DNA from: Polysphondylium violaceum | Lineage: Eukaryota | Length of the DNA stretch: 36,012 nt | Assembly (NCBI GenBank): GCA_000277445.1 | Contig: AJWJ01000015.1 | Location: 1-36,012 of the forward strand | Direction of reading: 5' to 3' | The notes under the pieces: model-generated | What the model was told of the DNA's origin: nothing | The model's database searches: none | What the model saw: the letters and a program-made list of their open reading frames with translations, nothing else | Position numbers and translations under genes: made by a program | Shown here: in pieces, positions 1,759-30,170 of the stretch | Numbering within the stretch: position 1 is the stretch's first letter | Layout of the letters: the number at the start of each line of letters is the position of its first letter

Positions 1759-3289
1759 TATTTAATTTATATATCTATATCAATATCTATGTGAAAATGA
1801 TAAAATGAAAAAAATGAAAATTTAATAAAAAAAAAAAAAACTCCACAAACCCAAAACGAGAAACCTCAGCAAATTCTATGAATATTTTTCATTAAATGGA
1901 AAATAAAAAAGGGAGATTAGAGTTCTCATGAATTCAATAAATAATATTATAGTATTGTATAATGTGAAATAAAGAGTTTGAAATTAATATTTAGAAACAA
2001 AGGTAATTCAAATTGAAAAACATGCCGATAAAATTGAAAGTTGAAATTCAACCTAGTTTATTGTGGTTGTGGTTGTGGTGTTATGAAAAAACCATATGTG
2101 CTCGTTTGGCGATACCATCAACCACAAACCTATTGGTAGGGTAAAGATATTTTGGTTGAAGTGGCTGTGAGATTAGTTGTAGGAGTTGGCAACTCGTTGT
2201 TTCGAATGGTGAACAAATGTTGTTATTTAGTTTTCAGGAATAAAATTTAGAGAGAGATAAAAAGGTGGTAAAGTAAATGTGGTTGGGGTGAAATAATAAT
2301 TATATTATATTTTTTGAATGGTGTGTGATTGATTTTATATATAAAAATAGGGTGAAAATAACCCGATAAAAATACTCAAAACACAATAATCACCATCACC
2401 ACCACAAAAAATTGATTCCTACAATAATTTTGACAATATTTTAATTTTGAATATCGAGGGTACAAACGACTGGGAGTACCTTTTTGAGTTGTTTCATTAT
2501 GTAATATACAATTTATATTACTATTACTGGTTGAGTGAGTTCATTGTTATTTTAACACTTTTCCCAATTTGATCAAACTATCTAGTAGATTTTGCTCACT
2601 TACGTTCTTTGTTTTTTATCTTTTTATTTCATTTTTTTTTTTTAATTATTTTAATTGTGAGGAGATAATTGGAATTCAAAAAAAACAGATACCTACAATA
2701 GTAATGTAAGTAAAATTATTATAAATAAAAATTCAAAAAGAAGGGTGATCATATGAGATAAGTTGTAGCATCAACAAATTAATTTTTCTTTTTTATTTTT
2801 CTTTTTTTTAAAGGCATTAATGAGGATTGGAACGATTTAATGAAATAAATTTAAATATTTTCCACAAATGATCAATCACTTTTGTTGTTAAAAATGGAAT
2901 ATATTAAAGTATGATTTGATTTGAATGTGATGAGCTCTATATCTCCCGTTTAAATATTTAATATCAGTGTGAGTGTGTGTATTATGTCTTCATATGGCAA
3001 AAATGATCTGATAATTCATAAAGTGTTTTTTTCAGGTAAGATTAACCTATTTTTAAAATTTATATTGATAATTATAGAAATATACACTGACGAACCATTT
3101 TTGGTTTTCACTTTAATGAGGGGGGTTATACAGTTAATGTGTGGTGTTTTTTTATTTCAAATACGAAAAAAAAAAACCAAAAGGATAGGCATTTTGACAG
3201 AGAGGAAATAGATGTATAAAATGACAACACCATATACTAATTTACCTCAATTTTAATCAGGATCCCCATATAATAAAAAGTATGATAAA

Positions 3290-3420
3290 AGAGTTTCCTC
3301 TCCATTTCCACCCACCCATTCACCCACTTTTACCACTACCACCCGCTCTATTTCAAACACAACACCTACACAAATTTCACCCACCACTCCTCACACACAG
3401 AAAATCAACACTTCCTATAG
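3290..3420. promoter_or_regulatory. C/CA-rich block (CCACCC/CACCCA/CACACA motifs) about 1.2 kb upstream of the Cys-rich repeat gene
   Basis: The run ctccatttccacccacccattcacccacttttaccactaccacccgctc...cacccaccactcctcacacacag is highly atypical within otherwise >85% AT intergenic DNA. It resembles the CA-rich / G-box (GBF-binding) elements of dictyostelid post-aggregative and prespore promoters. Confidence 0.35.
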
Positions 3421-4134
3421 AAAAGTCGTAAAAATCAATTATGAATTATCCCCCTCCCCCCTGTCAGAGGTCGGGTATAAAATAGTAATAGATGCATTAC
3501 TTTTGTGTTTTATATTTTATAACAATATGTTGTTGTTGTTATAGTTGTATGTGTGACAAGATTTCATCACCAGAATTTAATCATTGAAAATCTTGTAGGA
3601 GGTACCTTTTTCAAAATGTTGTGATATTTTTTATTTTGAGGGGGGGTGGTAAGGAGCAAAGTGGTAGATAGATAAATGGTGGGCCAAAAGAGATTATAAA
3701 AAAGTTTATTTTTAACTAATGAGAAAATGGGGTTCAATTGTGGTAGTGATTTATATTGTGTTTGGTGTTGATGATGATGTTGATAAGGGGTGTGATATGT
3801 ACATATGTACATATATGTATAATGTTTCCATACAAATGAATAAATATGGAGTGGTGATCTCATATAAGTAAGTAAAAATGGAGAGTGTACTCTGTGTGTG
3901 AGTGAGATAGATAATTGTGGGTTAAAATTAGTAAATAAACGAGTGAATGGAGGGTATTTTATAAATTAATTTTATGATATGATTGAAAAAAAATGTACAG
4001 ATCATTGGAAACTTGATCAACTTACTTTGAATGTGTGTGTGAAATTGATTTTCAAATGAGGAAAAGACAACCTAAATTGAATAGATGAGGTTAGAGAGGT
4101 TGATCAAATAACACAAAAATTATCAAAATAAAAC

Positions 4135-4260
4135 ACTCTCCATTCACCCTACCCCCCCACAAACACACATAAACACACCTACACATAACACACACTCTCA
4201 ACATACATACATACACACAACACAAACACTACCTACTTACCCACCACACTATATAATTTT
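4135..4260. promoter_or_regulatory. Second CA-rich block (ACACAC / CACCC / CCCCCCCAC) about 400 bp upstream of the ATG at 4622
   Basis: The run cattcaccctacccccccacaaacacacataaacacacctacacataacacacactctcaacatacatacatacacacaacacaaacactacctacttacccaccacac is roughly 120 bp with almost no G or T runs. This strand-asymmetric CA composition is unlike the flanking AT-rich spacer. Confidence 0.35.
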
Positions 4261-4621
4261 ATTTTTAATATATTTTCTGGAAATTTAGAAGGGTATTTAA
4301 ACAGAGTGGAAAATTGAAATTAGAAATCAAAACACAACATCAACAACATCCAAATAGAATAACAAAGAAAAACTCAGAGTTTTTTAAAGTTTTCTAATTT
4401 TAAAATATATATTTAATATATATATATCTATATTTTCAAATCAATATTTATTTATATTTATTTATTTAACAATTTAGATTTTATCTCCTCGTTTATTATT
4501 ATTTCTGTAATTAAAAAAAAAAAAAAAAGTAATTTTCCAGAAATATTTTTTGGTAAAAGATACATTGTTACTAACATCAATCAATCTATAGGCCTACTTT
4601 TTTGTAAATTCAAATTGTAAA

Positions 4622-7600
4622 ATGATAAAATACATTTTTATCTTGCTCATTGTTTTGAGTGTTTTTGGTTTAGCATTTGCCAATGTTGAAAATGCTGAGG
4701 AAGTTACAGTTTGCGGCACTGGTACATGCGGTTCTTGTGTTGGCGGATGTGATGATAAAAATTTGTGTACAACCGATACATGTATTGCCGGTAAATGTTT
4801 TAATACTCCAAAATTGTGTATGACCATCCTTAGATGTGGTGTCGCAACTTGCGATCCAACTTGTGGTGAATGTGTTGTAACTGGTCCCAAAGATAGCTCT
4901 TGTTGTGACGATGGAAGTGCTTGCACCATTGATACCTGGAGCAACAAAACCGGTTGTATTAATACCCCAAGAAGCTGTGATGATGGAAATCCTTGTACTG
5001 CCGATAGCTGCGATTGTGATAAAGGTTGTCAAAATGTTCCAATCAATGTAGATGATAATGATGCTTGCACCAGAGATTCTTGTTCAAATGGTAAAGTTAT
5101 TCATGAAAAAATCAACTGTGATGATGGAAACTCTTGTACTATTGATAGCTGCGATTGTGTTAAAGGTTGTCAAAACGTTCCAAAGAACTGTAATGATAAC
5201 AACCCATGTACTATCGACTCCTGTTCCAACTCTACTGGCTGTGTAAATACTGCAATTGATGTAAATGATAATGATGCTTGTACTCGTGACTCTTGTTCAA
5301 ATGGTAAAGCTGTTCACGAACAAATCAGCTGTGATGATGGAAATGCTTGTACCGTCGATAGCTGTGATTGTGTCAAAGGTTGCCAACATACCCCAAAGAG
5401 CTGTGATGATAGCAATCCATGTACCATTGACTCTTGTTCCAATTCTACTGGTTGTGTAAATATTCCAATGGATGTAAATGATAATGATGCTTGTACTCGT
5501 GACTCTTGTTCAAATGGTAAAGTTATCCATGAAAAGATTAGCTGTGATGATGGAAATTCCTGTACTATTGATAGCTGTGATTGTGTAAAAGGTTGTATGA
5601 ATATTAATAAGGATTGTAATGATAATAACCCATGTACCATTGATTCTTGTTCCAATTCAACTGGTTGTGTAAATATTCCAATGGATGTAAATGATAATGA
5701 TGTTTGTACCAAAGATTCTTGTTCAAATGGTAAAGTTATTCACGAACCAATTAGCTGTGATGATGGAAACTCATGTACCATTGATAGCTGCGATTGTGTT
5801 AAAGGTTGCCAACATACTCCAAAGAGCTGTGATGATAGCAACCCATGTACCATTGACTCTTGTTCCAATTCTACTGGTTGTGTAAATATTCCAATGGATG
5901 TTAATGATAATGATGTTTGTACCAACGATAAATGTGTAAATGGTAAAGTTGTTCATGAACAAATTAGTTGCGATGATGGAAACTCATGTACCATTGATAG
6001 CTGCGATTGTGTTAAAGGTTGCCAACATACTCCAAAGAACTGTAATGATAATAACCCATGTACTATTGATTCCTGTTCCAATTCAACTGGTTGTGTAAAT
6101 ATTCCAATGGATGTAAATGATAATGATGTTTGTACCCGTGATTCTTGTGTAAATGGTAAAGTTGTTCATGAACCAATTAGCTGTGATGATAAAAACTCTT
6201 GTACCGTCGATAGTTGTGATTGTGTAAAAGGTTGTATGAATATCAACAAAGACTGTAATGATAACAACCCATGTACCATCGATTCTTGCTCAAATTCAAC
6301 TGGTTGTGTCAATATTCCAATGGATGTAAATGATAATGATGTTTGTACCAAAGATTCTTGTTCAAATGGTAAAGTTATTCACGAGCCAATTAGTTGCGAT
6401 GATGGAAACTCATGTACTATTGATAGCTGCGATTGTGTTAAAGGTTGCCAACATACTCCAAAGAGCTGTGATGATAGCAACCCATGTACCATTGATTCTT
6501 GCTCCAACTCTACTGGTTGTGTAAATACCCCAATGGATGTAAATGATAATGATGTTTGCACCCGTGATTCTTGTTCAAATGGTAAAGTTATTCATGAAAA
6601 AATCAACTGTGACGATGGAAACTTGTGTACTATTGATAGCTGTGACTGTGTCAAAGGTTGCCAACATACCCCAAAGAGCTGTGATGATAGCAATCCATGT
6701 ACCATCGATTCTTGCTCAAATTCAACTGGTTGTGTAAATATTCCAATGGATGTAAATGATAATGATGTTTGTACTAAAGATTCTTGTGTAAATGGTAAAG
6801 TTGTCCATGAAAAGATTAGCTGTGATGATGGAAACTCTTGCACCATTGATAGCTGCGATTGCGTAAAAGGTTGTCTCCATATCAATAAGGATTGTAACGA
6901 CTTTAACCCATGTACCATTGACTCTTGCTCCAACTCTACTGGTTGTGTAAATATCAATATGGACGTTAATGATAATGATGTTTGTACCAAAGACTCTTGT
7001 GTGAATGGTAAAGTTATTCACGAACAAATCAGCTGTGATGATGGAAATCCATGTACCCTTGATACCTGTGATTGTGTTAAAGGTTGCCAACATACCCCAA
7101 TCAATGTTGATGATAATGATGCTTGTACCCGTGACTCTTGTGTAAATGGTAAACCTGTCCATGAAAAGATTAGCTGTGATGATAAAAACTCTTGTACCGT
7201 CGATAGCTGTGACTGCGTCAAAGGTTGTATGAATATCAACAAGAACTGTGATGATAACAACCCATGTACCATCGATTCTTGCTCAAATTCAACTGGCTGT
7301 GTCAATATTCCAATGGATGTAAATGATAATGATGTTTGTACCAAAGACTCTTGTGTAAATGGTAAAGTTGTTCATGAAAAGATCACTTGTGATGATGGAA
7401 ATGCCTGTACCATGGATAGCTGCGACTGTGTTAAAGGTTGCCAATACGTTCCAAAGAGCTGTAATGATAACAATGGTTGTACCATCGACTCTTGCTCCAA
7501 CTCTACTGGTTGCATCAATACTCCAATCAATGTAAATGATAATGATGCCTGTACTAAAGATTCTTGCTCAAATGGTTTAGTTATTCACGAAAAGATTACT

Positions 7601-8470
7601 TGTAACGACAACAATGCCTGTACTGATGATAGCTGTGACTGTGTTAAAGGATGTGTCTTTACTCCAAAGAATTGCGGTAAATCAGATAGATGTAATATTG
7701 TAAGTTGCTCAAATTCCACCGGTTGTGTTAGAGTCCCAGTTTCCTGTGACGATTTCAATCCATGCACTGTAGATTCTTGTGATGCAATCAGAGGATGTAT
7801 CAACACACCAATCAACGTTGATGATAATAATTTATGTACCCGTGACTCTTGTGTAAATGGTAAAGTCGTTAATCAACCAATCGTTTGTGATGATAAGAAA
7901 GCCTGTACCAACGACTATTGCGATCCAAAGAGAGGTTGTGTCTTTGCACCAGTAGTTTGTAACTCTACTTCTTGCTCCAAGGGATCATGTTGTGAAGATA
8001 CCGGTAAATGTGTCTATGAAAACACTCGTAACTGTGATGATAACAACAAATGTACCATTGATAAATGTGATCCAGTCAAAGGATGTACCAATACCAATTT
8101 AGTATGCAATGATAATGATCCATGCACTGATGATAGCTGCGATTGTGGTAGAGGTTGTGTCTTTACTCCAAAGAAATGTGAAGGTAAAGATAAATGCTCC
8201 AAATACACTTGTGATAAAGCCTCTGGTCAATGTAAAGCTGAAAAAATTGTCTGTAAACCATCCTCCAATCCATGTTTAGTATCATTCTGTAATCCAGAAT
8301 GTGGTACTTGTGACACCAAACCATTAGTTTGTGATGATGGAAATCCCAAAACCAAAGACTCTTGTAGTATTGCCAAAGGTGGATGCGTCTATGAAGATTG
8401 CAAAGATGATGATGACAAAAAGCCAACTACAGGTGCTAAAACCATTGGTGGATTCAAATGGCCATTTTAA
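4622..8470 (+). CDS. Secreted cysteine-rich repeat protein (1282 aa), built almost entirely of roughly 24-aa C-T-x-D-x-C units (Dicty_CTDC-like), single exon
   Basis: The N-terminus MIKYIFILLIVLSVFGLAFANV is a hydrophobic signal peptide. More than 50 iterations of xxCTxDSCxxxxGCxxxP units follow, about 16% Cys. There is no transmembrane segment and no stop codon or intron across 3.85 kb. The ORF is directly in the six-frame track. Confidence 0.85.
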   Translation: MIKYIFILLIVLSVFGLAFANVENAEEVTVCGTGTCGSCVGGCDDKNLCTTDTCIAGKCFNTPKLCMTILRCGVATCDPTCGECVVTGPKDSSCCDDGSACTIDTWSNKTGCINTPRSCDDGNPCTADSCDCDKGCQNVPINVDDNDACTRDSCSNGKVIHEKINCDDGNSCTIDSCDCVKGCQNVPKNCNDNNPCTIDSCSNSTGCVNTAIDVNDNDACTRDSCSNGKAVHEQISCDDGNACTVDSCDCVKGCQHTPKSCDDSNPCTIDSCSNSTGCVNIPMDVNDNDACTRDSCSNGKVIHEKISCDDGNSCTIDSCDCVKGCMNINKDCNDNNPCTIDSCSNSTGCVNIPMDVNDNDVCTKDSCSNGKVIHEPISCDDGNSCTIDSCDCVKGCQHTPKSCDDSNPCTIDSCSNSTGCVNIPMDVNDNDVCTNDKCVNGKVVHEQISCDDGNSCTIDSCDCVKGCQHTPKNCNDNNPCTIDSCSNSTGCVNIPMDVNDNDVCTRDSCVNGKVVHEPISCDDKNSCTVDSCDCVKGCMNINKDCNDNNPCTIDSCSNSTGCVNIPMDVNDNDVCTKDSCSNGKVIHEPISCDDGNSCTIDSCDCVKGCQHTPKSCDDSNPCTIDSCSNSTGCVNTPMDVNDNDVCTRDSCSNGKVIHEKINCDDGNLCTIDSCDCVKGCQHTPKSCDDSNPCTIDSCSNSTGCVNIPMDVNDNDVCTKDSCVNGKVVHEKISCDDGNSCTIDSCDCVKGCLHINKDCNDFNPCTIDSCSNSTGCVNINMDVNDNDVCTKDSCVNGKVIHEQISCDDGNPCTLDTCDCVKGCQHTPINVDDNDACTRDSCVNGKPVHEKISCDDKNSCTVDSCDCVKGCMNINKNCDDNNPCTIDSCSNSTGCVNIPMDVNDNDVCTKDSCVNGKVVHEKITCDDGNACTMDSCDCVKGCQYVPKSCNDNNGCTIDSCSNSTGCINTPINVNDNDACTKDSCSNGLVIHEKITCNDNNACTDDSCDCVKGCVFTPKNCGKSDRCNIVSCSNSTGCVRVPVSCDDFNPCTVDSCDAIRGCINTPINVDDNNLCTRDSCVNGKVVNQPIVCDDKKACTNDYCDPKRGCVFAPVVCNSTSCSKGSCCEDTGKCVYENTRNCDDNNKCTIDKCDPVKGCTNTNLVCNDNDPCTDDSCDCGRGCVFTPKKCEGKDKCSKYTCDKASGQCKAEKIVCKPSSNPCLVSFCNPECGTCDTKPLVCDDGNPKTKDSCSIAKGGCVYEDCKDDDDKKPTTGAKTIGGFKWPF
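5050..7570 (+). repeat. Tandem array of about 12 copies of a 213-bp (71-aa, three CTDC units) repeat with higher-order A/B alternation, inside the CDS
   Basis: Off-frame ORFs MIMMxxPxILVQMVKLF recur at 5052, 5265, 5691, 6330 and 6543, with spacings of 213, 426, 639 and 213 bp. Antisense ORFs (5314..5712, 6592..6990 and others) repeat with the same period. The protein repeat NDNDxCT(R/K)DSCSNGKVIHExISCDDGNSCTIDSCDCVKGCQHTPKSCDDSNPCTIDSCSNSTGCVNIPMDV is near-identical at nucleotide level between copies. Confidence 0.85.
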
Positions 8471-8618
8471 AAATATTACTTAACTAAATCAACATTTGTT
8501 TGATTTATTCTTTTCCAACCTTGTTTAAATCTTTTAATTTTTTTAACTTGAAAAAATCAATAAATATATATTACAATCTTGTATAAAATAATAATATTTG
8601 ATTTATTTCTTACAATTA

Positions 8619-12334: not shown

Positions 12335-12430
12335 AAAAGAGGATGGTGTGTTGGTGTTCTGTTTTATTTTGAGGACAAAAAAAAAGATAGAAAAGGAAAT
12401 GTGTGGGTGTGTGTTTGTGGGGTGAAATGA
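12335..12430. promoter_or_regulatory. GT-rich G-box-like block (GTGTGGGTGTGTGTTTGTGGGGTG) about 200 bp upstream of the trehalose-phosphate synthase ATG
   Basis: ggatggtgtgttggtgttctg ... gaaatgtgtgggtgtgtgtttgtggggtgaaatg lies in otherwise AT-rich spacer. GTGTGGG-type G boxes are the known recognition sequence class of dictyostelid G-box binding factor in developmentally induced promoters. Confidence 0.3.
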
Positions 12431-12600: not shown

Positions 12601-15128
12601 ATGGAATCCCTTTTACCAAAAGAAAAAGTTAAAAGACTTGTCGTTATTTATCATTCACTTCCAATTAGTAATGGTAAATTAGATTTAAATGGTAAATATA
12701 GTTATCATATACATTAAAAATTAATAATATGCACTAATTAATAACAACCTATGAATAGTTTGTTCTTATCATGATAGAAATTTAGGCTCATTGGCATCTT
12801 CTGTAAAGGCCCTAAAAGATAATAATAGTAAGTATAAATATATTTAAATACTTTTTAAATTGATATCTAATCTATAAATGAAAATATACAGTTGTAAATA
12901 ATCAAATTTGGGTAGGATGTCCAATTAATGATAAATTAAATGGAATAGAAAGTGAATTGGTTAAAGATGATAATTTTGTACCAGTAAACACCATACCTTC
13001 AAAACTATATGAGGACGCATGTGTAAATTTTTCACATAAATATCTTAGACCAGTGTTTCATTATGATATTTCTAGTACAAAGTTTGATGAAAATCATTGG
13101 AGATCATACATCGAGTTTAATATTCAATTTGCAAGAAAGATTCAATCCATTTATCAAGAGGGTGATATATTATGGATACATGGAATTCAATTATTATTGC
13201 TACCACAGTTCCTGAGGGAACTAATACCAACATCAACTGTTGGTCTCTTTCTCCATTGTCCTTTTCCAGCGGTAGAGGTTTATAGATGTCTACCCACTCG
13301 TAAAAAGTTATTATTAGGTATGTTGGGATCAAATCTGATTGCCTTTCAAGCATACTCTTATTCAAGATACTTTGTACAATCGTGCACTAGAATTTTAGGT
13401 TCCCATGTTGGTTTTGATGGTGTAAAGTACCACAATCCCGATACAAACACAGATATGTTGACAAGGGTATCGGTTTTTTCAGAAGGAATAGATCCGAGTG
13501 AAGTCATCAATGCCTTGGCAGTTAAAGAGTCTCAGTTGAGAATCAAGGAGCTAGAAGAGACATTTAAAGGAAAGAAAATCATCATTTCCAAAGACAAGGG
13601 TGACGCTATAGAGGCTACCAAAAACAAATTACTCGCATTTGAAAGAGTATTGAAAAAGAACCCCAACTGGATTGGTCAAGTTGTATTCTTTTTGGTTTGT
13701 GAACCTTATCCCTCGAGTAGTAGTTGTCCGACAAAAAAGGATAAAATCATATCAAACATTAACGAAACCGTCGCTAGAATCAATGGTGAATATGGTGCCG
13801 TTGGTATCATTCCCATTCAGTATATTAATAGAAATGTAGATTTCTCTGAAATGTGCAGTTTATTTCACGTTTCCGATATATTATTGTCCACTCCATTACG
13901 TGAAGGTATGAACCTCGACACCCATGATTTTGTAGTCTCTCACAGAGATAGTTTATCTAAACCAGGTACTGTCATTTTAAGTGAATTTGATGGTGCATCA
14001 CGTTGTTTTGGTGGTGCAAAGTTAGTTAATCCATGGTGTGTAAATCATATTGCACAGGCAATCACCGAGGCATTGGAGCAGAACACAGATGTAGCACAAA
14101 TTAATCATGATCATAATTTAAATTATGTTTTAAACAACACATCATTTCTTTGGGGAGAAGCATTTCTTTATGATATTCTCTCAATTATCCATCAACCAGT
14201 TAATAACCATACCTCTACTCTTTTGGATATCAAATTATTAGACAAATCCTATAGATTGTCAAAAAAGAGATTACTATTGTTTGATTATGACAGTGCATTC
14301 AAAGCTTTATTACCAACCAGTCCCGAGCTACCATCTTCGCTGCCATCGTTTGGTCCCACCAAAAATAATAGTGTTCAAAATAGAATTTCCAATGTTTTAA
14401 AGAAGTTATCCAAAGATCCAAACAATATCATCTATGTCGTTTCTCGAAGAGATAAAGATACCTTGGAAAATGTATTGGAGAATATTCCCGTTGGTCTGAG
14501 CTGTGAAAATGGAAACTTTTTAAAATCTTCCTCTGGTATTCCAGGCCAGGAGGGGGAATGGGAGAATCTATCCGCTGGCCAAGATATGTCTTGGAGAGAG
14601 GTTGTCAGTCAAATTTTAGAACATTTTTGTGAAAGATTACCTGGATCCAATATAACAACAAACACAATCACCCTCTCATTCTCTTATGAACACTGTCAAA
14701 CAGACTACTCATCAGAGGTTGCACAAGAACTACTCACAACCCTCATTGAAGTAGCCACCAAGTCTCCCATCGATATATCTCACAATAACAAAACCATTGA
14801 AATCCAACCTTCTGGTATAGGCAAAGGTTACTCAATGAAAAAAGTATTGGATGAAAATCCATCCATTGATTTCATTCTCTGTGTCGGTGATGAAAAAACC
14901 GATGAAGATCTATTTGACATTCTCGATGATAACAATTCAAGTCATTATTCCATCTCTGTTGGCAAAAAGAAATCCAATGCCAAATATTATGTTCAAGATA
15001 AATCACATGTAATCAAAACTCTAGAAATGATTTCCAATTTCTCTTCTCTCTCTCCACCAAACAATATGTTTACTTTTAGTCAAAAAATATCTTTTTCAAA
15101 AGATTTAACTTATACTTCAACATTTTAA
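12601..15128 (+). CDS. alpha,alpha-trehalose-phosphate synthase (GT20) fused to a trehalose-phosphatase domain; 3 exons: 12601..12691, 12786..12827, 12892..15128 (about 789 aa)
   Basis: Exon 1 reads MESLLPKEKVKRLVVIYHSLPISNGKLDLN(G), the TPS N-terminal 'RLVVVSNRLP'-type strand, with a GTAAAT donor. A 42-nt micro-exon reads GSLASSVKALKDNN. Exon 3 reads IVNNQIWVGCPI...FVPV...FHY..., then LWIHGIQLLLLPQFLRE, VGLFLHCPFPAVEVYRCLPTRKKLLLGMLGSNLIAFQAYSYSRYF (GT20 core motifs). The C-terminal HAD-like TPP motifs are LLLFDYDSA...VVSRRDKDTLE...GDEKTDEDLF. Confidence 0.8.
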
Positions 15129-15356: not shown

Positions 15357-18300
15357 TTATCGTTTTAAATAAATTGGAATACCATAAGATATACAAGAGC
15401 CACCGACTAAGTATTTCCATTCACATGATTTTCTTGCTATGGCTAGAGCATAACTAATATCCATATCTTGATTATTTATACTATTGACATCTTTTGGATC
15501 GTATTCATTGAGAAACCAAGTTTTAATAAACGATCGAGTTAATCTATCACAATCAGAGGTGGGCACATCAAATATATTGCCAATTACTGCTTTACTGCCA
15601 GCTAAAAGAAAATCTAGAATAATACCAGTGGGTTCAAATTCGCCTTGTTCTTCTAAATGACCGCTCTTACAACCCATTAGGATTGATACACCACATTTTG
15701 AAAGTTTTTGTATTCTGTCGCCACGGAAATACTGTTCACCCGATCCGTGACCCATATAAAAAAAGATTTCATTGTCTTCCAGTGCATTTTGATATTGAGG
15801 TTTGGTGGGAATTTGCCCAGCAATACCTGCCCAACTTGGAAAATGTTTGTTAAACAATGGAATAAAATAATCTTGAGTTTCGCTCAGACCACCACTTGGA
15901 TTGATAATGTAAAAGAGACTCTTGGTATCGACATATTCTCGTTCTTGTTTACAATGGCCGGTGGTCGAGTCTAGTGTTAAATGTCTTTGGAATGCAAACG
16001 ATGGTACTCTGTATGTAGAGGATTGCGAAAATGGTTCCAAAGTTTCAATTGGAAAACTTTGAAGAACTTTATCGATTATAAAAACAACTGGCATTCTTTT
16101 TTGAGAGAGATAAAGTTTGGCGCAGGTTTCTAAAGTCTTGGGGATCTTGCTGTTACTAATAACGCCAGTAGAGTTGGTGTTGAAACAATTTATAAATTCA
16201 TCGATAAACATTTGTAAAACAAATTCAATTTCGCCTTGATTTGGATGATTATCAAAGGTACTCTGGGTATCATAAACTCCAGTTTTTTCATTCTTTAATA
16301 CGATATTGTTAATTTGAGTCTTGGCATCCAATTTACTGTAACCAAGTAGTTCTATAATCATTTCTATTCGAGTTGTAAATGAAAGGAATGGAAGTGATGT
16401 AAATAAATGATCGAGTAAATTGATGTTGAATGTTGGTGATATTGTGGCTGGGGTTTTTTTACTATTGGTACTATTAGAACAAGGTTGGTTCTTTGGGAAT
16501 GAATATTTAGACAACTCTTGTAAAATGTTTTGTTTTGATTTCTGAACCATTGCAATTACATTGGGATTCATTAATGGTCCAATTAGTAAATGTTTTGAAG
16601 AGCCAATGAGTTGATCGATAGAGTTTAAAATATTTTTCATTTCAAACTCTAATACCTTTCTTCTATAGAACCAAGCTTTTTTAGAATCTTCAGTGTTTGA
16701 AAAGTTTGGTGAGTTTTCTTTGTTATTTAATAAATTTTCAATTTCTATAGTCTTTAATCCACCCTTAATTTTATCTAAAATTGAAAAAGAGATTGTTGTC
16801 ATTTTGGTTTCGCCATCATCTTGATTAATGTCATTATTATTATCATCTTCATCTTCTTCAACTTCTTCATCCTCTTCCATTTCCATCTCCATTTCCATTT
16901 CTTCATCATCATCATCACCATTGTTTTCATGTTCAGGATCATTTTGATTATTATCAATTAATGGAATCTTCACTCTTGATAAAATAGGAACTTGATTATT
17001 TGATAATCTACACAATATTAAATATTCACCCTCGTGTGCAATATTACATGATATCCATTGGGATGGTAGTTCAGTAGAGTAAAGTTTCTTTAGTTGATTG
17101 GTAAATGAGGAATCGGTCAAATTTGAAGGAAGATCCACTCCTCCGTTCCAAGAGAATATTGATTGTCTCATTGCCAAACTTTTCTTATCTTGATTATTAT
17201 TTTGATGATGATGTTGAATAATAGTTTGCATATCATGTCTACTTTTAATACCAATTGCTAAGTCTAAATTATTATTATTAATATTAATATATTATAAGCA
17301 AGAATCAAATATTTAAATTTGTTACATACTTAGGAAATGAGTACCAACAAAAGGATTTTGAGTACCAGTTGACAAACATATATATTTACAAATAGATGCA
17401 TTTAATTTAATTAAATTAAATTTACCAATTCTTTGAAAGGCACGAAGGAATAGTTCACGAGCAGAGGCAATATTTGGATGAGGTTTTGAACTAGTGGTAT
17501 TCGAAGTATAATTATCAAAAGACCAAATCTTTTCATGAACATTTTCATCTACATTATAGAAATAAGCCTTTCCCAAATGGAATTCTAATATGGTCAAGGT
17601 GATATCATTTGGTTTGAATGATGTTGTATTTTGATGAATTAAACGGTCAAGACAATCGATGGCACTTTCGTATTTCTTTTCAAGTATTTGTAACTTTGCC
17701 AATTTACCTTGGATTCTAGGCTCATAGGCCAACAATAATCTATAAGACTTTTGATTTCCTTCATTACTATCTTTGGCTGGTGGATTAATTGGTTGGTTTA
17801 CTAAATGATCAATAGTTTCAACTATGGTAAATTCTTTTAATTTTTGACCACCTCCAACATTATTATTATTATTATTATTATTTACATTTATAGATTTTGA
17901 TGATAAAAGCTTCATAAGTCTGGCTTCCTTTGGAGTACTGTCATTATTTGATTCTTGAATTGATAGACTATTACTAAATTTATCTATTAAACTACTAGTA
18001 TTGTTTTTATCTTGTATAATCTCTAGTGTTTTGTTATAATATTGACAAGACTTTGAAACAAGACCTTGTTTACGATAAAGATCACCCAACAGCATATTTG
18101 AAAGTAATAAACAAACTTTAAGACAATATGGTGATTGTTGTTGCTGTTGATTTGATTGATGTCTATTTAATAGGAATCCGACCAATTCCAAGTTTATCTT
18201 GGAGTCAATAAAGTTGTGCTTATTATAAAATAATTCACCAATCTCTACTAAAAACTCACAGGTGATCTTTAGAGATCCATAAATGATGCCAATCAGTAGA

Positions 18301-21300
18301 CCTCTTTCATAATAGTATTGTGCCTCCTTTGGTCTACCTCTGAGCTCATATATACTTGAAATATGGAGTAAAGAATCCAAACAAATTTTCAATGATGCCC
18401 ATTTTGATGTTGTTATTGTAACACTACTATTGCTGCTGCCATTGTTGAATTGTTTTTGCTTTTTACTTCCACTAGCTGCTTCTTTTAACAAATCTACAGA
18501 TTCCAATGGCATCGTACTAAATATACAATCGATAAGCTTATCGGCAACTTTAAAAGCCATTGCCGAATCTGTTGCCGATATGAATATGTTTGAAGTAATT
18601 TTAGATATCTTCATAAAAGCAGAAATATCAACAAGTTCATTGTTTGTTTCCATTTGCTTAATGAATTGATTATAAAGTTTTTTAATATCTTCACATCTAG
18701 AGGGACATAATTAGTTATAGGCAATGGTTTTAAGAATAATAATAATATACATACAATTGATTGTCATTTGGATTTACAAAATATTTATATTCAGAAAGAT
18801 AGACATAGAATATCATTTGATAGGAATCAAATCTATCGGTAGATAAAATTGGTTGAAAAGAATTTAATAGTGTTTGGGAGAGTTGGAGATAATAGAGGCA
18901 TTGGGTAGTGTTGTTTAATTCCAAATAGCTTGAACTAATTTGATTAAAACATTTAAATGTCTCGGATAAAAACGTCATCGAGTGAGGTGAGAATAGACAT
19001 TTGATCAGTGCAATGACAAGTTTTAAAACAAAGATTGAATTATTATAATCACCTTCAAAACTATATATATCGGCAATATTGTACAAGATAGAGAGGGTTG
19101 TGTGAGGTGAGATAAAGTATTTCAAATTGTTTTGCAACACTGAATAGTTGGCAGTGGTGCCACTTGTTCCTTTACCTGCAGAGAGAACCGGTTTCTCTAG
19201 GGAATCCAATAATTTGCACCAAAGACTAATAGACAAACCAAGCTCTTTGGTGATGGGCGAGGAGGATGATCCAACTGGCGAACGGAATCGATTCGAGTCT
19301 GACGAACGGAGGAAATGTGAGATGGAAAGAGAAGAATTTGCTTTACTACTGTATTTGAATAACTCACTCTCGCTAGAGTCAAAGTAGTCCAAACTACTAT
19401 TCTTTTCGTTTTGGCGTATACTCGACAGAATATCTTTACATTGGTTTTGGTAGAGCTCGAGATGGGTAATTGCTTTCCAGAAATGTAATTTGGCCAATTC
19501 ATTATAGATTGCCGAGTGGAACGGTTGGTCTAAAGAAAGCTGGTTGTTCTTTATCATATCCACAGAGTCTTGGAAATGGTTCTCAATATTCTCTTTGTTA
19601 GGATTGTAAAAACGGAGGATCTTGCCCCTCTCCATGAGATATCTGGCATGAAGAATGGGATATGTGGCACTGGGCAAGTCATTGAGGAATCTATCGATTT
19701 GCAAGAGCAATAGTTGATGAGCATTCTTTTCGCCTCCACCAATAAATTGACTAAAGTTTAACAGCATCATATCGTATACTTGGATTTTAAATTCAATGGT
19801 AAAGGATTCATCGCCAATGGTGATGATATCGTTGATGAGTTTGATCCCATCGAGTGGAGATAAATGAGATCCAAGTTGTTGTTGATTAAAGTCTTCAATC
19901 TGCGCTAAATTTGTATTGAACAAATGGAGTAATGTCAATGAATAGTTTCTAAGAATCTCTTGAAATGGTCTTTGTTGTTGATACTGTTGTTTTGCTGCTG
20001 CCCCACTACGAGTGTCAGGGGACTTTCCACCACTGATTGATTCATAGAGAACTTGATTAAAGTTTGTTTTACCCTTGAAATAGCATTTTATAGACTCGAT
20101 AGCCAAACTATGGGCTTTTTTGAGACCCTCCAAAGACTTGTCCTGCACCTTTAGTCGTATGTAGGATGCATAGAAATAGCAATTGGACAACATCTCCATG
20201 TGATGGAGTGTCTGTTCGGTTGGTGGCTTTCGTAATGTCAATATTCTATTAATGATTTGAATGGATGATTCAATGTATCCTTTGGCAAGACTATAGTCGG
20301 GTGGCTTGATGAGCTTTAAAAAATATGTTCCAAGATTGTACAAATAAGAGGCAAACTCTTCAATGCCTTGTGTATAGTTGAGAACAACGCCACACACCAC
20401 CGAATTGGTTTCCACGAGTTTGGTCTTGAAAGAATCTGTCAACTTTCCATTCATTCTTTTGAAAAGACTATAGATACACAATGAATAGTTTTTAATAAAT
20501 TCCTCTAAACTCCCCTGAACATGTTTGTTGGTGTAGAATTTCTTTGTTGGATTCAGAGTATCAAATGCCTTGAGCCATTTGAGATTCACCACCGATGGAA
20601 TCAAAGTATAGTATTCGTTAAATGTTTCTATTTGTTGACAAATTTCCAATTTTAATGATTTCTTTTCCTCTCCATTATTTTTAGTAAACTTTATGTAGAG
20701 TTGTACAAACTGATCGACAAGACATAAAGTGTGTCCAATGAATTTAATGCTACTAAATTTTGACTCTATTGAATTTTGTGCATCTATTGTAAATTGACTA
20801 TTGACAAATGCTTTTTCTGTAAGTTGATGGGTTGTCAACAGATACTTGTACAATTCTTTTTCTAAATCTGTTGTATCTGGTGATTGATTGTTTTCAATGG
20901 TATTTGTCAATTGGTGTAATAGATAATAACATTGTTGTATCCAACAATGTAATTGACCAATAACCAATTCACATTGATAAAAATTACTCGTTTCATTTGA
21001 TTCTTTTTTCTTTTTTAAATATTGATTTACAATTTCTATTAATTCCTTAGCAATTGTATATTGATTCTATAAAAAGATAATATATTAGTACACATTTTAT
21101 GAATACTAATAATAAAAACAACACATACAGAATCAATGGCAAATGTTGATATTGTACACAAACAATCTATAAATGTTGTATCAACTTTTAAAATATATAA
21201 TGGATCTTCTGGATTTGATTTCAACATTTGAGGGATTACTTGTACTTTTATCATATCTACTATATCATTCAACATTTTCCAACAATTTTTATCTAGAGAA

Positions 21301-22579: not shown

Positions 22580-25440
22580 TTATTTTATTCCTAATATTAA
22601 ACAAGTAAATGCCTGAGCCAATAATGGGATATATTGATTACTGGGCGACGATCTAGATGCAACTCTGTTTAATAATTTAATGAGTGATCCTAAAATAGCC
22701 TTCTTTTCATCATTTAAAGTTCTCAACATATTCTCTATACCTACTACTCTTTCATGTTCATTTTCACATTCTATTTGTTTAAATTAATTCAATTAGTATT
22801 AAGATGATATGATCGTATCAGTGGTAATCTATAACTATAAAATGCAATACATACTAGCAATAGATACCCAAGTATTTATAAATGAATCTGTTACGAAAAT
22901 TGGCTCAATAGTTTTGAAAAAGTGTTTCAAGAGTTCAGAAGTCATATAAACATCCACGTGTTCAGGCTGCATTGTGTTTCCATTGACCTTTAGTGATTCA
23001 GAATATATTTTGCTCTCTTTATCTTTTGCAATCTCTGCACTTTTAATCAATACATCGGCACTTAAATCTGCAATATTGTCTAAATAACTAGATGTTTTTA
23101 ATATTAAAGCTGATTTAGATGGTCCTCTCATATTTAAATTCTAATTACAGTATTAGTATTAATAATATCTTTTAACTATCAGATTATTTATACTTACAGG
23201 GAATAGAGATTCATAGTTTTTAATCAAAGACTCCATTACTACTGAACTCTTTTGATTAATATGGTCCTTTGTAATTTGTTGTTGTTGTTGTTGTTGTTGT
23301 TTCATTATAGTATCTTGAGAATTCTTCAAGATATTATTACCACTAATATTAATATTTGATTTTGTCACTGGAGTGTTTTGATTGGAGGTAGCAGTAGGAG
23401 TATTGTTACCAATGCTATTACTGGTATTATCTAAAACACTTGAGCTTTTCATATTATGATTATTGGGAGATGGTACAAATGTGGAGGAGGAGGCAGAGGA
23501 GGAAGCAGAGGAAGGGACCCCAATATCATTTGATTTTTGATTTATGTCTTGTAAATACATGGAATGGAGTAAAGAGAATTTCTCTGCTTGTTGGTCATGT
23601 AGGGCGTGATAGAGCATATGAACTTGATGCTCGAGACCTCTGACTCTAGCAACGTCTACCATTCTTTCATCGGTGATCAAGTCATGGCCACAATCTAAAA
23701 TTTGGATGATACCTGAAATGTAGATCTCTGATGCAATTCTGGCGGCCTCTCTTCTGGCCAATTCTCTGACGAGATCTTGTTTGATGTGATAGTGATCTTT
23801 GATTCTTTGGCTGCACGATTGAAACAATGGATGGATTTTAAAGTAATCGGAATAGTATCCCTCTCTGATTTGTGAGTATATTCTCTCGAGCTCTATATCC
23901 CACTTTGAGAGGTCCCTCTCCACGACATTGATGGCCTCGTACAGACGAGTGACTTCATTGCAAACCGATACAAATCTATCACGGAGTTCTCTCACACTTC
24001 GTTTCTCAATGTTGAGAAAGGCGATGGCTGACTCTACCTTTCTTTTCTTCTTTTCAAAGTCTTCAATTTGTTTGGATTCTTTGGAACGTAGTTTCTTTTT
24101 CTTTGAAAATGCATCGATAGATTCATCGATAGATAGCTTTTGTGACAAAAGATCTTGAAGGAAATTGAGGATTGTCGAACTGACCAAATCACAGTCACCA
24201 ACAATTTTAGCATTTTGTTTTAATTCAATGTTGACTTGTTTCTTTGTGATACGTTTCTCCAAGAGTTGATGAATCTCTGACGATAGATTGTGGAGGTGTG
24301 ATGTCAAGAGTACTCTATTTTTAAACTGAATTCTTTCTATTCTATACTTTGCCGTGAGCAATACCTCTGATATCTTTTGATTCAACTCTTCTTCATTATG
24401 ATATTGACTAATATTTAAATTTAAATTTTGTGCTAAACTATTTAATTGTTCCTTTTTCAAATTAAATGATTGTTGTTGTTGATGTTGTTGTTGGTGGTGA
24501 TGTTGTTGATTATTAATACCATTTAAAACTATTGGTGAGGAATTCTTTGCAACAGATGCAGGATATTGATGTGGTGATGATTGCTCTTGTTCAAATCTTT
24601 TCTTTTGATGGAATATTTTTGGTGTTTGTGGTGAAAGGGTTGATTGGTGTTGTTGGTTATGATGTTGCTGTACAGGTGATGAAATTGGTGAATAGTTATA
24701 AGAAGAAGACGATGGTGATGATGTAGTTGTTGTAGTTGTAGTTGTTGGTTGTTGTTTTGGATTTTTCAACATTAATATTTTCTTTTTTTTCTAATTCTAA
24801 ATCATCTTTGATTTCATTCATTTGTTCATCCATTGTTTGAATTTGAGCTGTTTGTTCTCTTAGATCTTGTTTTACACGTTGATACTCTTTTATAATATTT
24901 AATACTTTTCCTTTATCAACTGTATTATTACCATTGTTGCTATTATTACCATTGTTATTACTATTATTATAATGATTACTGATATTGACTTGATTATTTT
25001 CCAAAGAATTTAAAGAATTCATTAAACTTTCAATATCTTTATCTACATCCAAATTCTTTTCACTACCATTTTGTCTGCTATTATAAGAATTTATAATATT
25101 TGATAGACTTGAATTACTCTTTGAATTTGTTAAGTCCTTTTCCTTTTTAATTTTTAAATGTTGCTTTATTAGCCAATCTTCATCGTCATCCTCCAATTGA
25201 CTAAAATCTGCGCCATCTTTAATATTATTTATTTCAATTAATATTTATTCACATCGCTCTCATTCATTCCGACTACTACTCACCTATATAATCATTTATA
25301 TTTATATTTGGACCAATGACTGATTTTCTAAGTACCTCTCTTAGATCTGATATTTCATCAATTAAATGATTACTTTTGATATCATTTTTATGTAGAGTAT
25401 TGATTTTTGATCCATCCATAACTAATGCTGAATTTTCCAT
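22580..25440 (-). CDS. Q/N-rich coiled-coil protein of unknown function (about 850 aa), multi-exon; exons: 25284..25440, about 24790..25216, 23198..about 24790 (frame change inside an A8 run), 22855..23140, 22580..22770
   Basis: Start MENSALVMDGSKINTLHKNDIK...DYI(G) precedes a GTGAGT donor and 67-nt intron, then DGADFSQLEDDDEDWLIKQHLKIKK... (ORF 24696..25196). The body is ORF 23159..24772 (MLKNPKQQPTTTTTTTTSS...polyQ...heptad-rich segments...CGHDLITDERMVDVARVRGLEHQVHMLYHALHDQQ). It ends SLFP|GTAAGT, a 57-nt intron, TAATTAG|NLNMRGPSKSALILK... (ORF 22835..23131), IA(A)|GTATGT, an 84-nt intron, and ATAG|(K)CENEHERVVGIENMLRTLNDEKK...LILGIK*. I recognise no conserved catalytic domain. Confidence 0.5.
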
Positions 25441-26430
25441 CTTTGTTCAATTTTTATGTTTTGTTTAATGTTTTGTGATGTTGTTGTTGTGTTTATCTGA
25501 TGATTTCAAACTTTAAATTAATATATAAATAAAAGAAGAGAATAAGATAATAAGGAGAGTTTGAAGTGTTATTGGTGGTGTGTTGGGTGAGGTTATGATG
25601 ATTAGTTTAATTAAGAAATAAAATTATAAATTGAAAAAAAATAATAAAAAAATAGTAAATTAAATAATAATGGTTTCTATTTATGTGTTATATGGTTGAT
25701 ATTGGTGTTGATGTTGTGGGTGTGAATGGGGTGGAGGATAAATTAAGTTGGAGGTAAAATATACACTAAACATATACACAAATTATGTGCCCACTCAATC
25801 TTTTTAATTTAGTATTAGTGGTGGGAAAAAAAAAAAAAGTAAAATATATATAGATAAATATATCTTTTTTTATCCAATTTTGTAGTGTGAGTGGTGTTTA
25901 ATGTGGGTGTGTTTATTTGTAGGTATAAACAAGAAGAACTCTGAACCTTACGATATTGTTGAATAATTATTTAATCAAAAATCAAAAGTGGGTGAGTGGG
26001 TGTGATTAACACTTTTTTTATTTATTATTAGCGTGTGTGCTATATTAAATAAGGATATAAATAGAGAGGTTGTGAGTGTGGGACTATGTGAGGGAGAGAT
26101 TAAGAAATATATATAGTGTGTGTGATGCGAATAAAAATAATAACATGATGGGCTTATTTTTTTAAAATAAACCAATAAACCAATGTGATATATTAATAAA
26201 AATCACACAATATTATAATAATATTTATATTTCCGCCAAGATATCGGAATTATGTGCATATTATCACACGCCCATAACTAAGGATATTTCACCCCATTCC
26301 ATGCAATCCCCAAAAAAATTTTAGATTCTTTTTTTTCCACTCCGACGTTGGGATGGTGATTAGGATTGTATGGGTGAGTGAGCGGGGGTGGGGGTGGGTG
26401 AGTGTGGGCATTTCAATCATCACATTGATT

Positions 26431-27477
26431 CTATACGTCGATGACTACTTTTCCATTGGCTGTTCGATTTTCAAATGCTTGATAGGCTAGTGCAATTTCA
26501 TCAATTCCGAAATGGAGTGTGTTGTCTATATTTACAGACAAAGTGTGGTTTTCATAGAGCTTGGCGAGCTGGGCTAGATGTGGGCCAGAGGGCACAAATA
26601 GACAATGGTCAAATTGAATGTCTTTGTTGAATTTTGTTTTTATCTGATCACGCTTTGATAGGGTGTCCATCACACCCCTTGGCAGACCTTGGACAACGCC
26701 CTGGCTATCGCTGTGCGAGACAAAGGATCCGTTGAAGCCTATGAGATGTCCTGTGTTGTTTTTCAATGCATGTATGCATTTATCCTCGATTTGCTCGCCA
26801 GTGACACAGTTGAATATAATGTCAAAAGGCTGTTGTGTAGAGTCTTGTAAAATGGATGAAAGGTTGTAGTCGATGACTTGGTCGGCACCTGCAGCTTTTA
26901 GCTTATCGAAATGAATAGGATTGCATGTGGTGGCGACAAAAGGAATGTGGAGATGTTTTTTGAGATAGTTTACAATAAAGAACCCTACACCGCCATTGCC
27001 CCCATTGACCAGCACTCGCTTACTCGATCCGTGCTCAAGTTTAGCTGTGTTGGTGATTGCGTTCAAAGCAGTGAGAGCTGCAAAGGGCACCGAGGCAGAT
27101 TCTCTATGACTCAAGTTTTTGGGCTTCAATGATATCTCACTCTCATCCAAGAGAACATATTGTGCATGAGAACCATTGGAAAATGGTGCATTTGAGCCCC
27201 AAACCAAGTCACCTATATTATAATCCCATACATCTTGACCAACCTCTACAATTTCCCCACTACATTCTCTTCCCAAAATAATTGGCAACTCTTGATTTGT
27301 CAATCCAACTATACTTTTAGCATAACCCTTTCTCATAACATTATCCAAAGGATTGATACTAGTTGCACAAACTTTAATTAAAATCTGTGATTTCTCTGGT
27401 TTAGGGAGATGAACTTTACTTGATATCTCTAAATTACTTAATGATTCTCCATATTGATTCAACAATACTCCTTTCAT
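26431..27477 (-). CDS. Zn-dependent alcohol dehydrogenase / quinone-oxidoreductase-like MDR superfamily protein (348 aa), single exon
   Basis: ORF 26431..27477(-) starts with a GroES-like N-terminal domain (LIKVCATSINPLDNVMRKGY...GRECSGEIVEVG), followed by a Rossmann nucleotide-binding fold VLVNGGNGGVGFFIVNYLK (GxGxxG). Overall architecture resembles RTN4IP1/zeta-crystallin-type MDRs. Confidence 0.85.
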   Translation of the reverse strand: MKGVLLNQYGESLSNLEISSKVHLPKPEKSQILIKVCATSINPLDNVMRKGYAKSIVGLTNQELPIILGRECSGEIVEVGQDVWDYNIGDLVWGSNAPFSNGSHAQYVLLDESEISLKPKNLSHRESASVPFAALTALNAITNTAKLEHGSSKRVLVNGGNGGVGFFIVNYLKKHLHIPFVATTCNPIHFDKLKAAGADQVIDYNLSSILQDSTQQPFDIIFNCVTGEQIEDKCIHALKNNTGHLIGFNGSFVSHSDSQGVVQGLPRGVMDTLSKRDQIKTKFNKDIQFDHCLFVPSGPHLAQLAKLYENHTLSVNIDNTLHFGIDEIALAYQAFENRTANGKVVIDV

Positions 27478-29933: not shown

Positions 29934-30170
29934 TAATTAGATATATATAATATTTAATTATTAATCCATAAATATTCAATTGATTATTATTATTACTATT
30001 ATCATCATCATTCAACAATATCAAAGAGGGAGAGAGGTATTTAATTTTTTTAAAATTTAATTATTTATTTTGATTTGTTAGAAGGAAGGGGAGTGAGTTT
30101 GTTGTTGGTGAGTGAGTGAGAGTCTGAGTGAGAGAGTGATTAACTTAATTTAATTTGATATGGTGATGAT

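Follow-up and report, generated by a model that had tools for sequence, protein, structure and literature searches.

The first 36,012 nucleotides of contig AJWJ01000015.1 of Polysphondylium violaceum (assembly GCA_000277445.1, forward strand), referred to here as the window, contain a gene whose product consists of little else than one short cysteine-rich repeat, and the question raised by this locus is what kind of secreted protein the gene encodes. The original prediction, made from the DNA alone, had described a protein of the extracellular-matrix and spore-coat type, probably a prespore or stalk component, that would be unnamed and uncharacterised. We show below that the gene is g731 of a published P. 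violaceum annotation and propose that its product is probably a secreted structural matrix protein that falls into the EcmA/EcmB clade; the gene is very likely the one published as ecmAB2.

Positions 4622 to 8470 of the plus strand form one unbroken open reading frame (ORF), which starts with ATG and specifies 1282 amino acids without an internal stop. The deduced protein contains 197 cysteines, 14% Asp and 11% Asn; the high cysteine content foreseen for it was found, at 15.4% instead of about 16%. Residues 1 to 20 (MIKYIFILLIVLSVFGLAFA) constitute its only strongly hydrophobic segment, with a Kyte-Doolittle value of 3.07 in 15-residue windows against at most 1.07 elsewhere, and the same scan of the whole protein, C-terminal end included, revealed no transmembrane or glycosylphosphatidylinositol (GPI)-like segment that could serve as a membrane anchor. 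Because the next-best window reaches only 1.07, the protein is predicted to be secreted and not membrane-anchored. The Pfam family PF00526 (Dicty_CTDC, "Dictyostelium repeat") matched it in 41 separate stretches with 993.6 bits (E = 0; gathering cut-off, 27 bits). Pfam also listed DUF4025 and two families of phage tail proteins; with no stretch passing alone, these three were set aside as compositional noise, and no NCBIfam family was matched. The architecture proposed from the DNA, a signal-like N-terminus followed almost wholly by CTDC repeats recognised by the family model and accompanied by no other credible domain, was therefore recovered.

Narita et al. (2020; PMC7259674) annotated the P. 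violaceum genome with BRAKER1 trained on RNA-seq data and searched it for relatives of ecmA and ecmB, reporting that two P. violaceum genes, ecmAB1 and ecmAB2, are the sister clade of Dictyostelium discoideum ecmA and ecmB; their supplementary alignment "ecmABhomologs" contains g9971, g6127, g731, g7103, DdisecmA and DdisecmB. The window ORF is identical to g731 of this supplement in all residues (1282/1282), and the gene model published there, for which RNA-seq data served as training, likewise has this one exon, in agreement with the view that the frame is not interrupted by real introns. Identification of g731 as ecmAB1 was rejected: the window contains neither the promoter primers of ecmAB1 nor an exact match to its quantitative PCR (qPCR) primers, one of which fits the repeat consensus with two mismatches. 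Since both peptides encoded by the qPCR primers, ACTRDS and HIPISC, occur in g7103, and HIPISC is missing from g731, ecmAB1 corresponds to g7103 and g731 to the other member. On the basis of the tree and these primer checks, g731 is almost certainly the gene named ecmAB2, a name for which no further paper was found in the literature searched.

In BLASTP comparisons, g731 was 67% identical to g7103, 53% to EcmB, 48% to EcmA, 45% to g9971 and 42% to g6127. In a neighbor-joining tree built from a MAFFT alignment, g731 and g7103 formed a pair with a bootstrap value of 99.5%, and EcmA and EcmB one with 97.5%, a topology that agrees with the statement made from the published Bayesian tree (PMC7259674). 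Moreover, when the six proteins were compared, units with two cysteines were found only in g731, g7103, EcmA and EcmB, g9971 and g6127 being composed purely of four-cysteine units. Judged from these sequence comparisons, g731 groups with EcmA/EcmB and not with the other CTDC paralogues, which places it in the extracellular-matrix branch as had been proposed, and EcmA and EcmB are co-orthologues of g731 and not one-to-one counterparts, the duplications being independent according to both PMC7259674 and our tree. Gene, family and the link to ecmA/ecmB are thus already in the literature, and their discovery carries little weight here; the earlier description as probably unnamed and uncharacterised did not hold, although g731 is functionally unstudied.

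Some features of the non-repeat ends cut across this grouping. The C-terminal motifs CCEDTGKC and DDxNPKTxDSC (amino acids 1123 and 1238) are shared by g731 with EcmA only, the N-termini of g7103 and EcmB are reciprocal best matches at the same position, and the signal-peptide cleavage region of g731 resembles that of EcmB. A pairing of g731 with EcmA and of g7103 with EcmB by their non-repeat termini was tried but not adopted, as the signals were mixed and the scores no better than those of internal repeats. An ecmA/ecmB split that predates the divergence of P. violaceum and group 4, with later homogenisation of the arrays within each species, could be read from these mixed and weak signals.

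The repeat array was then resolved into units. Exact CTxDxC motifs occur 44 times with a spacing that cycles through 24, 24 and 23 residues, and counting the degenerate units at both ends gives approximately 50 to 52 units, as expected from the predicted figure of about 50 repeats of 23 to 24 residues. Near the divergent N-terminal region, exact motifs are found at amino acids 49, 125 and 149, the last of which runs just past the end of that region. The motif is part of a CxxxxxCTxDxCxxxxGC framework with a period of about 24 residues, in which all four cysteines are present in 30 of the 44 units and the first and fourth (Cys1 and Cys4) are jointly missing in the remaining 14. Units are not uniform along the protein. 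Tandem Repeats Finder detected a period of 213 nucleotides, with 9.8 copies at positions 5024-7100 (83% matches) and 2.6 copies at 7092-7654, which corresponds to a 71-residue super-repeat assembled from three unit types. Unit A (VNDNDxCTxDSCxNGKVxHExIS) has two cysteines and is without the first and fourth of the framework; unit B (CDDGNSCTIDSCDCVKGCQHTPKS, containing ...DSCDCVKGC...) has five, one of them an extra cysteine in a "CDC" motif; and unit C (CDDxNPCTIDSCSNSTGCVNIPMD) has four, together with an N-S-T glycosylation sequon. The super-repeat therefore holds an odd number of cysteines, 11 in total. One C unit is absent from the core array near amino acid 829.

The 213-nucleotide copies are 66-96% identical in DNA, with a mean synonymous divergence (dS) of 0.77 and a ratio of nonsynonymous to synonymous divergence (dN/dS) of 0.17, and no exact repeat of at least 80 nucleotides is present in the array. 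These values show that the copies are old and under purifying selection, and that the array is not a collapsed or mis-assembled one; an assembly artefact, which the original prediction had considered as a possible refutation, is at odds with copies that differ by 4-34%. Fourteen N-X-S/T sequons were counted in the protein, 12 of them in an SNSTG context, and all C-type units carry N-S-T within CSNSTGC. The CSNSTGC motif is also kept in EcmA, EcmB and g7103, a conservation that suggests regularly spaced N-glycans along a rod-like molecule.

The joint behaviour of Cys1 and Cys4 extends beyond g731. In the six dictyostelid proteins, 148 of 220 units have both cysteines, 71 have neither, and a single unit has just one of the two; in 241 database relatives the corresponding numbers were 2952, 398 and 149, an association whose nominal P value is inflated, the units being related by duplication. 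A structural frame for this pattern came from AlphaFold2, which was run on the C-terminal 265 residues (amino acids 1018-1282; window positions 7673-8467) with a 119-row alignment of database relatives, all of at most 464 amino acids and none of them an orthologue. The resulting model had a mean predicted local distance difference test score (pLDDT) of 90.2 and showed one two-stranded beta-hairpin per unit, with TxDxCx as strand 1 and GCxxxP as strand 2. Ten hairpin units were recognised in these 265 residues, half of which (5/10) carry the exact motif, and the A-type unit formed the same hairpin without Cys4. In the model, a single extended strand holds both Cys2 and Cys3 at a distance of five residues, which makes a bond between them within a unit impossible. 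The co-loss of Cys1 and Cys4 and the geometry of the strands together lead us to predict a Cys1-Cys4 staple within the unit and a ladder of bonds between units.

A Foldseek search with this model returned a single candidate fold match, the cysteine-rich arm of the heavy chain (HgL) of the Entamoeba histolytica Gal/GalNAc lectin (E 1e-6). Structures of HgL (PDB 9gja, 9gjb and 9gjc) were released in February 2026 and described in PMC12948311, where its modules of 20-35 residues with four cysteines are termed a novel fold and Dictyostelium is not mentioned; the first and fourth cysteines form an intradomain bond, and the second and third are bonded to the previous and the next module, "rigidifying the arrangement". 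HgL pseudo-domains resemble CTDC units in being small beta modules of that length with four cysteines in a long array, and their bonding pattern, internal for the outer pair and directed to the neighbours for the inner pair, fits the co-loss of Cys1 and Cys4 in CTDC units. On the other hand, HgL modules are described as three-stranded, whereas the g731 model has two strands per unit, and HgL, unlike g731, has further domains and acts as a membrane adhesin; any homology between the two would be hypothetical. For PF00526 itself, no solved structure was found among PDB entries by sequence. The tri-unit super-repeat with 11 cysteines, the co-occurrence of Cys1 and Cys4 and the hairpin model with its link to HgL are additions to what the literature contains.

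The pattern of extra cysteines distinguishes g731 from its relatives. In g731 the extra cysteine that makes the super-repeat odd occurs 15 times in the "CDC" context and never in a "GCC" context, and the total of 197 cysteines is odd. In g7103 (134 cysteines, an even number) there are 10 "CDC" and 10 "GCC" cysteines, and these two kinds, which lie in adjacent units, could pair with each other. EcmB has one "CDC" and 14 "GCC" cysteines (165 in total), and EcmA one and eight (215 in total). For the "CDC" cysteine of g731 there is no partner that recurs with the same period, although all aligned copies keep it. That a free thiol once per 71 residues would act as an intermolecular cross-linking site is speculation from the sequence pattern.

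Proteins of the EcmA/B type have been textbook prestalk markers for decades. EcmA (DDB_G0277853) and EcmB (DDB_G0269132), the classic matrix proteins of the prestalk, stalk and slime sheath, have, like g731, a signal peptide and after it almost exclusively 24-residue Dicty_CTDC repeats, with four-cysteine and two-cysteine units interspersed and the CSNSTGC unit kept, and they are 48-53% identical to g731 over more than 1000 residues. g731 differs in its strict A-B-C triplet, of which the five-cysteine "CDC" unit is nearly absent from both (15 copies versus one in each). The closest relative, g7103 (ecmAB1), has the same A-B-C super-repeat at 67% identity; compared with it, g731 is 460 residues longer, lacks the 10 "GCC" cysteines and has a long divergent C-terminal region. 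ecmAB1 is the only P. violaceum member studied by experiment (PMC7259674): an ecmAB1-lacZ reporter gives weak staining in aggregate tips and strong staining in the stalk, and ecmAB1 mRNA rises in the stalk-overproducing stlB- mutant. Schilde et al. (2014; PMC4406040) likewise describe the EcmA/EcmB family as proteins with cysteine-rich repeats behind a signal peptide, and state that the ecmA product is believed to strengthen the stalk. In Polysphondylium pallidum, the homologues PPL_07208, PPL_07586 and PPL_04427 of that study have the architecture of g731 and belong to the same wider clade, a likeness that is taken from their description only; two of the three are expressed in stalk and tip.

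Descent and architecture together make g731 a probable component of the stalk tube and/or the sheath. We propose that the signal peptide would route the protein to the secretory pathway, that its roughly 50 consecutive Dicty_CTDC modules of 23-24 residues would each fold as a small beta-hairpin, and that disulfides would staple the hairpins into a long, stiff and protease-resistant rod. Together with cellulose, this rod would be laid down in the slime sheath and/or stalk tube, and it would reinforce the matrix there, as EcmA and EcmB do in D. discoideum and as the expression of ecmAB1 suggests for P. violaceum. The likeliest disulfide plan would combine Cys1-Cys4 bonds inside units with Cys3(i)-Cys2(i+1) bonds between them in a continuous ladder, from which A units would have lost the internal bond while keeping the ladder. 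The extra cysteine of the B unit, with 15 copies per molecule and no obvious partner, may then form intermolecular cross-links. The joint proposal that Dicty_CTDC shares the HgL fold, that EcmA/B proteins are continuous disulfide ladders and that g731 exposes 15 unpaired cross-linking cysteines is tentative, and we regard it as rather doubtful that all three parts hold together. What it offers is structural: the hairpin model, the co-loss of Cys1 and Cys4 and the HgL match give a testable disulfide-ladder model of matrix rods for a very large family that comprises more than 8000 mostly bacterial cluster representatives and has no experimental structure, and the periodic odd cysteine could explain covalent cross-linking of the matrix.

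Several observations weigh against this reading, or against parts of it. The clade formed by g731, g7103, EcmA and EcmB received a bootstrap value of only 59.5% in the neighbor-joining tree. One P. pallidum homologue out of the three shows no cell-type specificity (PMC4406040), and stalk specificity can therefore not be assumed for every member of the clade. For g731 itself, localisation in the matrix, stalk-specific expression and cross-linking are what we infer. The suggestion that a repeat block could be modelled by AlphaFold held for the C-terminal 265 residues and failed for the core: an A-B-C-A-B-C block of 142 residues, modelled by AlphaFold2 with eight sister copies as the alignment, reached a pLDDT of only 33.8 and was discarded. 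Global template modelling (TM) scores between the C-terminal model and HgL are low (0.17-0.24), and no sequence homology to HgL was detected by phmmer or by searching the 119-sequence profile against all PDB sequences, even at E <= 10. The proposed disulfide pattern derives from covariation, strand geometry and analogy.

Four other explanations were considered. In the first, which we hold to be improbable, the protein would be a prespore or spore-coat matrix component that travels in prespore vesicles and becomes part of the spore coat. CA-rich elements occur in D. discoideum prespore promoters, and the secreted, cysteine-rich g731 product has upstream of its gene a CA-rich tract (4099-4263) that is the longest in the window. 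Groups 1-3 can also co-express prestalk and prespore markers in the same cells (PMC4406040). However, other C+A-rich, nearly G-free tracts of 80-160 nucleotides lie in or near intergenic DNA at 3322-3419 and, on the minus strand, at 12338-12429, 24603-24760, 25668-25770 and 30053-30170, and because similar tracts flank unrelated genes, the tract alone is no sign of developmental regulation; such tracts may be widespread in promoters or intergenic DNA of P. violaceum. A scan of the upstream region for TTGA-type and CA/G-box motifs gave counts too low, with motifs too short, for interpretation. Of the modules that define dictyostelid spore-coat families, Spore_N and FOLN (Gloeckner 2016, Table 4), neither was found in g731 by the Pfam scan, and the closest characterised relatives of g731 are stalk/prestalk genes. 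The spore-coat and prespore part of the original prediction was accordingly abandoned in favour of a matrix protein of the EcmA/EcmB clade.

Two further alternatives are, in our estimate, still less probable than a spore-coat role and about equal to each other. The family also includes pdiA, psiA, psiF and psiN (Gloeckner 2016), and g731 might, instead of being structural, be secreted to act in signalling or regulation in the manner of PsiA, PsiF/DicA or the phosphodiesterase inhibitor PdiA; the Pfam scan revealed no PA14 domain, however, and the size and repeat-only architecture are those of EcmA/EcmB, with which g731 groups to the exclusion of the other CTDC paralogues. The rod might alternatively be the arm of a cell-surface adhesin, a spacer that presents a binding site as in HgL, whose cysteine-rich arm is the sole structural match. 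An arm of this kind is hard to reconcile with a protein that has neither a transmembrane or GPI-like segment nor, in the Pfam scan, a lectin, VWA or other terminal domain, and that has no relation to HgL at the sequence level. Bacterial contamination or recent horizontal acquisition, to which the best 120 matches in an index of 5.8 billion proteins and the best 150 HMMER matches might point, all being bacterial, metagenomic or unnamed and including proteins with type IX secretion system (T9SS) sorting domains and names of Myxococcota and Chitinophagales, is effectively refuted by an identity of at most 51% to bacterial matches versus 53-67% to EcmB and g7103, by the position of g731 between eukaryotic genes (separase, trehalose-phosphate synthase/phosphatase, protein kinase) and by a GC content at third codon positions and a codon choice that resemble those of the neighbouring genes.

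The composition of those match lists seems to reflect the collections searched. Neither EcmA/EcmB nor the P. violaceum paralogues were among the best 120 index matches or the best 150 matches of an exhaustive HMMER scan, which was made with residues 1-1199 as the query, and exact look-ups of g7103, g9971, EcmA and the window ORF in large protein collections gave no match. As three published relatives cannot be retrieved in this way either, absence from these collections is uninformative; repetitive dictyostelid proteins of the EcmA/B type seem to be missing from or hidden in them, which would make the taxonomy of top hits misleading. The description of g731 as unannotated or bacterial-like was rejected, since it is 48-67% identical by BLAST to published sequences and look-ups of its relatives fail as well. 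Overall, 8209 cluster representatives matched PF00526 at E <= 1e-3 and 1138 at E <= 1e-30, most of them bacterial or metagenomic. The bacterial and metagenomic proteins (Myxococcota, T9SS cargo of Bacteroidota and others) share this repeat and are up to about 51% identical where stretches match, but their cellular context differs, and unlike g731 they are usually fused to T9SS sorting, PKD, CHRD or P-domain modules and reach 7241 amino acids. One amoebozoan match, P0018 of Clastostelium recurvatum, carries a PA14 domain.

The coordinates of the features of the locus are compiled in Table 1.

Table 1. Features of the g731 locus, in positions of the window; aa, amino acids; nt, nucleotides; CDS, coding sequence; TRF, Tandem Repeats Finder.
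Feature	Position	Strand	Basis or remark
5' intergenic region, ~2.9 kb, putative promoter	1759..4621	+	regulatory role inferred
CA-rich tract, ~360-520 nt upstream of ATG	4099..4263	+	C+A >=85% in 80-nt windows
Complete single-exon CDS, 1282 aa	4622..8470	+	ORF list; 1282/1282 residues identical to g731; PF00526, 993.6 bits
Putative signal peptide, aa 1-20, MIKYIFILLIVLSVFGLAFA, cleavage predicted after A-F-A	4622..4681	+	hydrophobicity; cleavage site by eye
N-terminal divergent Cys-rich region, aa 21-142, degenerate units	4682..5047	+	read in the 71-aa register
Core array, twelve 71-aa (213-nt) A+B+C super-repeats, aa 143-994	5048..7603	+	TRF, register and unit typing
C-terminal divergent units, aa 995-1256, ~11 predicted beta-hairpin modules	7604..8389	+	AlphaFold2 model of aa 1018-1282
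C-terminal tail, charged and probably disordered, KDDDDKKPTTGAKTIGGFKWPF	8390..8467	+	pLDDT <50 (model residues 249-260); non-hydrophobic
Candidate AATAAA polyadenylation signal	8559..8564	+	read from sequence; inference only

In the unusually long intergenic stretch that separates the ATG of g731 from the minus-strand ORF upstream of it (1384-1758), no ORF reaches 150 amino acids. That minus-strand ORF belongs to an opposite-strand gene at 1065-1758, which appears as two ORF pieces of 124 and 56 amino acids, the second with a CxxC motif. The other neighbours encode a major facilitator superfamily transporter, a trehalose-phosphate synthase/phosphatase, separase, a tetratricopeptide repeat (TPR) protein, a zinc alcohol dehydrogenase, an alpha-amylase and a protein kinase; the dehydrogenase ORF (26431-27477) is exactly KAF2077936.1 (CYY_000737). 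Positions 12957-15128 of the plus strand carry a fused trehalose-6-phosphate synthase/phosphatase (GT20 plus Trehalose_PPase). An apparent multi-exon separase gene occupies 15357-20967 of the minus strand, where the candidate comprises a Peptidase_C50 ORF (15357-17231), a TPR-like ORF (17322-18653) and a domain-less ORF (18730-20967).

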